Below, piece after piece: positions 6,670 through 8,762 of a stretch of 64,000 nt of DNA. The notes under the pieces are model-generated. The model was not told where the DNA came from. It made no database searches and saw only the letters and a program-made list of their open reading frames with translations. A program made the position numbers and the translations under genes. Each line of letters begins with the position of its first letter. Within the stretch, counting starts at the first letter, position 1. Location of the stretch: NCBI RefSeq assembly GCF_053078305.1, contig NZ_CP166879.1; one strand, given 5' to 3'.

Positions 6670-8007
6670 ATGAACACTTCACCGGTGCGAATGGATGATT
6701 TACCGCTTAACCGTTTTCACTGTCGAATTGCTGCGCTCACTTTCGGCGCACACCTGACCGACGGTTATGTTCTCGGCGCCATTGGTTACGCCATTATTCA
6801 ACTTACGCCCGCCATGCAACTGACGCCGTTTATGGCGGGAATGATCGGCTGCTCGGCGCTCCTTGGTTTGTTTCTTGGCAGCCTGGTTCTTGGGTGGATC
6901 TCCGACCATATTTGTCGGCAAAAAATCTTCACCTTCAGCTTTTTGCTGATTACGCTCGCTTCGTTCCTGCAATTTTTTGCCACCACGCCAGAGCATCTTA
7001 TTGGACTGCGCATTTTGATCGGCATTGGTCTGGGAGGCGATTACTCAGTCGGTCACACCTTGCTGGCTGAATTTTCCCCGCGCCGCCATCGCGGTATTTT
7101 ACTGGGCGCATTCAGCGTGGTGTGGACCGTAGGCTATGTGCTGGCAAGTATTGCCGGACATCACTTTATTTCCGAAAACCCGGAGGCCTGGCGCTGGCTA
7201 CTGGCATCGGCAGCTCTGCCCGCGTTGTTGATTACGTTATTACGCTGGGGAACGCCAGAATCGCCACGCTGGCTACTGCGCCAGGGGCGTTTTGCAGAAG
7301 CTCACGCTATCGTGCATCGCTATTTTGGTCCCCATGTTTTACTGGGCGATGAAGTGGTAACGGCGACCCATAAACACATCAAAACCTTGTTCTCTTCGCG
7401 TTACTGGCGGCGCACGGCGTTTAACAGCGTCTTCTTTGTCTGCCTCGTAATCCCATGGTTTGTGATTTATACCTGGCTGCCAACTATCGCCCAGACTATT
7501 GGTCTGGAAGATGCGCTGACTGCCAGCCTGATGCTTAATGCGTTGTTAATTGTGGGCGCGCTGCTGGGATTAGTTCTGACGCACCTGCTGGCACATCGCA
7601 AATTTTTGCTGGGAAGTTTTTTGCTGCTGGCGGCAACGCTGGTAGTAATGGCCTGTTTGCCTTCCGGCAGTTCATTAACGCTGCTGCTTTTTGTTCTCTT
7701 CAGCACCACCATTTCGGCAGTCAGTAATCTGGTGGGCATTTTGCCTGCGGAAAGTTTTCCTACTGACATTCGCTCGCTGGGCGTCGGTTTTGCCACCGCC
7801 ATGAGTCGGTTGGGGGCGGCGGTAAGTACTGGCCTGCTGCCGTGGGTGCTGGCGCAGTGGGGAATGCAAGTCACCTTATTGCTCCTGGCGGCAGTGTTGT
7901 TGGTTGGTTTTGTTGTGACCTGGCTATGGGCACCAGAAACCAAAGCACTCCCGCTGGTGGCGGCGGGAAATGTAGGAGGTGCGAATGAACATTCTGTTAG
8001 CGTTTAA
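6670..8007 (+). CDS. ygcS: MFS sugar-porter-like transporter
   Basis: 445 aa from ATG 6670; multiple hydrophobic helices. Confidence 0.8.
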   Translation: MNTSPVRMDDLPLNRFHCRIAALTFGAHLTDGYVLGAIGYAIIQLTPAMQLTPFMAGMIGCSALLGLFLGSLVLGWISDHICRQKIFTFSFLLITLASFLQFFATTPEHLIGLRILIGIGLGGDYSVGHTLLAEFSPRRHRGILLGAFSVVWTVGYVLASIAGHHFISENPEAWRWLLASAALPALLITLLRWGTPESPRWLLRQGRFAEAHAIVHRYFGPHVLLGDEVVTATHKHIKTLFSSRYWRRTAFNSVFFVCLVIPWFVIYTWLPTIAQTIGLEDALTASLMLNALLIVGALLGLVLTHLLAHRKFLLGSFLLLAATLVVMACLPSGSSLTLLLFVLFSTTISAVSNLVGILPAESFPTDIRSLGVGFATAMSRLGAAVSTGLLPWVLAQWGMQVTLLLLAAVLLVGFVVTWLWAPETKALPLVAAGNVGGANEHSVSV

Positions 8008-8762
8008 AGCCGAACCGGATGCCGGAATGCTGGCGGAAAAAGAGTGGCAGGCGGCGGCTCAGGGTAATAGCGGACCGGATGTTTCGCTACTGCGAAGTTT
8101 ACTCGGTGCTGATGAACAGGCTGCCGCCGCGCTGCTGTTGGCGCAGAGAAAAAACGGTACGCCGATGTCTTTAACCGCGTTGAGCATGGGGGATGAACTG
8201 GCGTTACACTGGCTGCGCTATCTCATGGCTCTTGGGTTTGAGGAAGCTGTATTGCTGGAGACGGCGGCAGATCTGCGCTTTGCGCCGGAATTTGTCGCTC
8301 GCCATATTGCCGAATGGCAGCGTCAGAATCCGCTGGATCTGATAATTACCGGCTGCCAAAGCAGCGAAGGGCAGAATGGGCAAACGCCATTTTTGCTGGG
8401 TGAAGCTGGGCTGGCCCTGCTTCACCCAGGTGGAGCGTTTCACTCTCGACGCGCTGTTTATCACCCTCGAACAGCGTACTGAACATGGGCTGCGCTGTTG
8501 TCGGATTCGCTTGCCTGCGGTGATTGCCGTGCGTCAGTGCGGTGAAGTGGCCTTGCCAGTACCGGGAATGCGCCAGCGAATGGCTGCGGGGAAAGCGGAA
8601 ATTATCCGTAAAACTGTTGCTGCCGAATTGCCAGCGATGCAGTGTCTGCAACTGGCAAGAGCAGAGCAACGACGCGGAGCGACGCTGATTGATGGGCAAA
8701 CGGTAGCAGAAAAAGCGCAAAAGCTATGGCAGGACTATTTACGCCAAAGGATGCAGCCATGA
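7985..8762 (+). pseudogene. ygcR: Electron-transfer flavoprotein beta subunit (FixA-like), apparently frameshifted near 8402-8406
   Basis: N-terminal part reads in one frame (7979..8482, MNILLAFKAEPDAG...), C-terminal part (...LPAVIAVRQCGEVALPVPGMRQR...) in another frame (8376..8762); span 778 nt is not a multiple of 3. Confidence 0.6.

Follow-up and report, generated by a model that had tools for sequence, protein, structure and literature searches.

The ygcR locus of the window (the whole stretch of 64,000 nucleotides that was analysed) raises the question of how a gene of the ETF beta / FixA family came to lose its reading frame, and whether the loss is to be ascribed to several small events, to an error of the assembly, or to one more complex mutation. 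The results described below present it as an ordinary case: window ygcR is a recent, strain-specific pseudogene of E. coli 48 (an STEC isolated from roe deer), and it was probably made by a single template-switch mutation at a quasipalindrome.

The start-to-stop span of ygcR (7985..8762, + strand) is 778 nt and is not divisible by 3. From the ATG at 7985 runs a FixA-like frame, lying within the 7979..8482 entry of the ORF list, which translates as MNILLAFKAEPDAG...TPFLLGE and then reads through AGLALLHPGGAFHSRRAVYHPRTAY to a premature TGA at 8480-8482, 165 codons in all from the ATG, while the native C-terminal half (LGWPCFTQ...RLPAVIAVRQCGEVALPVPGMRQ...RQRMQP*) is translated in a different frame that ends at 8762. 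The first-pass annotation had placed the two halves in different frames with the switch at GAAG 8402-8405, and both points agree with the present data, since the translations from the two frames are as it described and the alignment with the intact 780-nt allele has a 2-nt gap after 8404. The net loss of 2 nt from that allele likewise bears out its view of ygcR as a frameshifted gene of 778 nt, and the neighbouring ygcQ, which it considered intact, does encode a 286-aa protein found exactly in other E. coli. The frame is lost at codon 141 and translation stops 25 codons on, which leaves the following parts:

ygcR 5' fragment, 7985..8482, + strand: residues 1-140 native except A139G, then 25 out-of-frame residues and TGA; 165 aa.
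ygcR 3' part, 8406..8762, + strand: ancestral residues 142-259 and the stop, in a frame that differs from that of the start codon.
ygcQ (ETF-alpha/FixB-like), 8759..9619, + strand: intact, 286 aa; PF00766 at 64.1 bits and PF01012 at 29.6 bits.

By descent ygcR is a member of the ETF beta / FixA family whose product is truncated, and the break splits the single ETF domain of YgcR in two. The match of the window product to Pfam PF01012 (ETF) reaches 24.9 bits over profile positions 22-102 of 181, which is below the gathering cutoff of 26.7 bits, so that a full-length ETF domain is not recognized in it; the intact ygcR of a close relative (L005) matches the same family with 60 bits over positions 22-180. 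The C-terminal ORF alone matched no Pfam family, and a functional ETF-beta subunit is probably not made. Upstream, ygcS (6598-8007) shares the 23 nt of its 3' end with the start of ygcR, and its own start is annotated differently among assemblies, with 469 aa in most of them and 445 aa in the source assembly.

The nature of the damage is evident from the comparison with the intact allele, which reads CTGG CG GAA AT GCTGGG where the window has CTGG GT GAA -- GCTGGG, i.e. the ancestral CGGAAAT became GTGAA, 7 nt being replaced by 5 nt with a net change of -2:

Lesion, 8400..8405, + strand: C>G at 8400, G>T at 8401, and AT lost between 8404 and 8405.

At the site the intact allele is CTGGCGGAAATGCTGGG, without GAAAAG, and a longer stretch of intact ygcR across it is GCGGAAATGC, where the derived allele of the window is GGGTGAAGC. 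The first-pass annotation took GAAAAG as the mark of an intact allele; this was mis-specified, the intact allele being the longer stretch just given. The ancestral GGCGGAAATGC contains a run of three A followed by T, and the bases lost are one A and one T; in the ancestral GGAAATGC the two substitutions fall 3-4 nt upstream of the lost bases, a pattern other than that of homopolymer slippage. A 48-mer carrying the ancestral state is 100% identical in 3,643 of the 5,426 complete E. coli genomes, K-12 among them, and because this sequence is species-wide, the window allele is the derived state.

The derived allele is private to one strain. Megablast of 7985-8762 gave matches in 5,095 of the 5,426 complete E. 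coli genomes, the best of which are all annotated as 780-nt ygcR with an identity of 98.5-99.1%, none exceeding 99.1%. These values had raised the suspicion of Shigella or some other divergent lineage as the source, which is discarded since the window belongs to E. coli strain 48 and has near-identical draft genomes. The exact YgcQ protein, recorded on 22 contigs, in other E. coli, provided seven loci for comparison; one of them, JPQG01000003.1 (GCA_000736735.1; L004), shows 100% identity with the window in alignments of 8,861 bp and of 20,747 bp, belongs to JPQG00000000 (E. coli strain 48, subAB2-3 STEC from roe deer), and is the only one of the seven without a gene called at ygcR, the other six having the intact allele. 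L005 (GCA_018683475.1) agrees with the window at every position of an 8,861-bp alignment apart from the lesion. Two further relatives, L016 and L017, which were reached via the exact Cas3 protein, differ from the window between 7571 and ~26,900 (~19 kb) by the lesion and 4 SNPs, and no other indels were found over this distance outside the CRISPR spacers. All close relatives possess an intact 259-codon ygcR. The MutS sequence of the window was too widespread to single out close relatives and was used for the indel comparison only.

None of the 5,426 complete E. coli genomes contains the derived junction, and JGI metagenome contigs gave no match to it; exact look-up of both truncated ygcR products in a collection of 15 billion proteins found neither of them, and the reciprocal conversion, in which the right arm of the repeat described below would be recopied from the left, had no match in other strains. 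As the event is seen once, with more than 5,000 genomes showing neither recurrence nor reciprocal conversion, the site is not a hotspot.

The surroundings of the lesion form an inverted repeat with the following elements:

Left (converted) arm, 8396..8406, + strand: CTGGGTGAAGC; the ancestral arm is CTGGCGGAAATGC.
Spacer, 8407..8418, + strand: TGGGCTGGCCCT; 12 nt, unaltered, with an inner 4-bp stem of GGGC 8408-8411 and GCCC 8414-8417.
Right (donor) arm, 8419..8429, + strand: GCTTCACCCAG; unaltered, its outer end overlapping the Dcm site CCAGG 8426-8430.

The left arm (8396-8406) and the right arm (8419-8429) are reverse complements of each other in 11 of 11 positions, and thus an imperfect inverted repeat that is conserved across E. 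coli has become a perfect 11-bp repeat in the window. An inverted-repeat search detected arms at 8396-8411 and 8414-8429 (16 nt, 94% complementary, 2 nt apart), and with identical settings detected none in the equivalent region of a relative. Folded as single-stranded DNA, the derived hairpin has an energy of -16.5 kcal/mol (z = -4.9; none of 200 shuffles as good), and the ancestral segment -6.6 kcal/mol, the same stem there being broken at two places, by a mismatch and by a bulge of 2 nt each, ((((..(((..((.(((....))).)))))..)))). Such an outcome is rare among arbitrary changes: when all 1,024 possible 5-mers are put in place of CGGAAAT, a single one, the observed one, gives the 11-bp perfect stem, and for replacements of 3 to 7 nt the count is 2 of 21,824. 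The T/T mismatch at 8407/8418 was left uncorrected, which limits the extent of the copied tract.

The sequence therefore has the features by which a quasipalindrome mutation is recognized, i.e. an imperfect inverted repeat in the ancestral state, a cluster in which every change brings one arm to exact complementarity with its counterpart, and the confinement of the changes to the arm, with flanks as in close relatives. The template-switch model of such mutations goes back to Ripley 1982, and such events bring the repeat closer to perfection and in many cases cause a frameshift (PMC7202029; PMC6357072). The E. coli cases include thyA and the lacZ QP5/QP6 reporters, where a leading-strand bias was described (PMC7202029; PMC6357072), and the work cited there includes Ripley 1982, Rosche 1997, Dutra and Lovett 2006, and Seier 2011. 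The outer part of the donor arm overlaps the Dcm site CCAGG at 8426-8430; in E. coli, template switching is stimulated when Dcm-DNA complexes are trapped, but only under 5-azacytidine (PMC6357072).

The mechanism proposed here is read from this pattern. The starting state would be the imperfect repeat with the left arm CTGG-CG-GAA-AT-GC, the 12-nt spacer, and the right arm; during replication the nascent strand would quit its own template for ~7-11 nt, copy the other arm, and switch back, so that the left arm would be rewritten as the exact complement of the right one and a single event would yield both substitutions and the 2-nt deletion. Two routes may be considered. On the lagging strand the switch would be intramolecular, with the nascent strand folding back and copying its own right-arm complement. 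On the leading strand it would be intermolecular (cross-fork), the nascent strand after CTGG 8396-8399 pairing with CCAG 8426-8429 on the lagging-strand template, copying GTGAAGC, and then returning, as in the type described by Rosche et al. 1997. Both routes fit the geometry, and the data do not separate them.

As for orientation, the + strand has a GC skew that is positive overall in the window, in agreement with the K-12 map, on which the ygc-rpoS-mutS region lies on the counter-clockwise replichore and its genes are on the minus strand; together these would make the + strand the leading nascent strand, with the fork moving from left to right in the window. The converted arm is the left arm, the one first reached by the fork. 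One point counts against a template switch, namely that mutS is intact in the window and the heteroduplex must then have escaped mismatch repair by chance.

The event shares with the experimental systems of Ripley and Lovett (thyA, lacZ QP5/QP6; Rosche 1997) the E. coli host, the pre-existing imperfect inverted repeat, the combination of substitutions and an indel in one arm that becomes an exact complement, and the resulting frameshift. Those systems concern selected reversions or hotspots, and the event described here is a natural one-off in a wild isolate; moreover, they are characterized by genetic dependence (ExoI/ExoVII, AZT, dnaB), whereas the present case is known from sequence alone, its strand and route being unassigned. 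The template-switch clusters obtained from comparative genomics (Loytynoja and Goldman; inverted-repeat homogenisation in yeast, PMC8604942) resemble it as local multinucleotide clusters between close relatives, explained in the same way by an inverted copy of nearby sequence. Unlike these, the window case is bacterial, breaks a coding sequence, and involves a very short tract (7-11 nt).

Of the competing explanations the one that survives best, unlikely as it is, supposes that the lesion arose as an error of consensus or assembly in a draft, probably long-read, assembly and that the real strain has an intact ygcR. It is favoured by the source being a draft WGS assembly without reads and by the allele being carried by a single assembly, at whose ygcR position (L004) NCBI calls no gene; for its later genomes, and for sister strains, the same laboratory used PacBio-only assemblies. 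The errors that remain in long-read assemblies are typically indels of 1 nt in homopolymers. The lesion lies outside a homopolymer and consists of two substitutions and a 2-nt deletion; it matches the complement of sequence ~13 nt away, as would ~1 in 1,000 arbitrary replacements; no further indels appear against near-identical relatives (~19 kb), and comparison with diverse strains over 32-55 kb shows no frameshifting ones; and every other gene-sized ORF in the window is of the expected length. All this argues against an artefact and for a genuine mutation.

A functional frameshift, by programmed ribosomal frameshifting or as a two-piece YgcR made through restart at ATG 8376, is extremely improbable. 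Restart at this ATG is conceivable, as the codon is preceded by AAGG 5 nt upstream (8366-8378) and opens a 128-aa ORF with the whole C-terminal half of ygcR; however, it was out of frame in the ancestral gene and so was never selected as a start. Programmed frameshifting had been brought up by the first-pass annotation on condition that the site be conserved in several strains, and this does not hold, because the junction occurs in 0 of 5,426 complete genomes, has no metagenome match, and is replaced by an intact gene in relatives, so that no other genome searched conserves it. Moreover, 8390-8420 reads CTG GGT GAA GCT GGG CTG, with no known +1 or -2 slippery site, and the break falls inside a single ETF domain whose C-terminal fragment alone lacks a Pfam match.

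The least credible of all is an origin by slippage within a run of A (GAAAAG to GAAG) or by a 1-nt insertion, which the first-pass annotation proposed from the net length change of -2 at GAAG, or by several independent point events: the ancestral GGCGGAAATGC offers no such run but A3 and then T, an A and a T were deleted with two substitutions alongside in the change of CGGAAAT to GTGAA, and between relatives that differ by ~4 SNPs in 19 kb (~2 sites per 10 kb) it is vastly improbable that three events, amounting to four edits, should have fallen independently within 7 nt.

With one template switch as the preferred origin, the consequences for the ETF pair may be considered. The ygcR gene has the adjoining ETF-alpha/FixB partner gene ygcQ, whose ATG overlaps the ygcR stop (ATGA 8759-8762), and fixABCX-like surroundings are present in the form of two nearby genes on the opposite strand (ygcN, ygcO), for a FAD-dependent oxidoreductase of 423 aa and a ferredoxin-family protein of 86 aa. 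The K-12 ygcR/ygcQ, a FixA/FixB-like ETF pair of the ygcNOPQRSU cluster, agrees with the window in locus, synteny, 98-99% nucleotide identity, and the presence of the ETF (PF01012) and ETF_alpha (PF00766) domains; unlike K-12 ygcR, the window ygcR is frameshifted at codon 141. YgcQ would thereby be left without a beta subunit. As ribosomes would now stop ~280 nt before the ygcQ start, the ATGA overlap probably no longer couples the translation of ygcQ to that of ygcR.

For biology at large the finding has little weight, as it concerns a single pseudogene, confined to one strain, of an accessory redox module. It provides a clean natural example of a known mutation process, with both the ancestral and the derived state available in near-identical natural isolates. 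In practice a cluster of 2 SNPs and a 2-nt deletion would be counted by variant callers and annotators as several events or called a sequencing error, and one template switch at a species-conserved quasipalindrome fully accounts for it. The sole phenotype of ygcR found in the literature is that its deletion lowers mazEF-linked death after DNA damage (PMC2646832). As a reported "death gene" for mazEF-linked killing, ygcR might by its inactivation aid survival under the DNA damage that induces Stx prophages, and it may be speculated that the loss was selected in a Shiga-toxin strain rather than being neutral decay; this is very unlikely, with evidence neither for nor against it, and if true the conserved quasipalindrome would be a built-in, seldom used off-switch.

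Several other features of the window were recorded in the same comparisons. An intact type I-E cas operon (from cas3, 899 aa, to cas2) followed by a CRISPR array occupies 17569-27500, and the spacer content of the array differs even between relatives otherwise separated by just 4 SNPs over ~19 kb. In the variable rpoS-mutS region (39334-41354) UbiX-like (197 aa) and UbiD-like (475 aa) decarboxylase genes replace the K-12-type ygbI-N sugar-acid genes, a layout that is also present in L026 and L030. Between mutS/ygbA and fhlA there is an extra segment of ~0.5 kb (45593-46107) with an ORF of 155 aa, which in L030 is a TOBE-domain gene; of the 8 strains compared, 7 lack the segment. Finally, a 50-aa toxin gene of the hok/gef family lies at ~17224-17376 between cysH and cas3 and is called in L013 and in all relatives.
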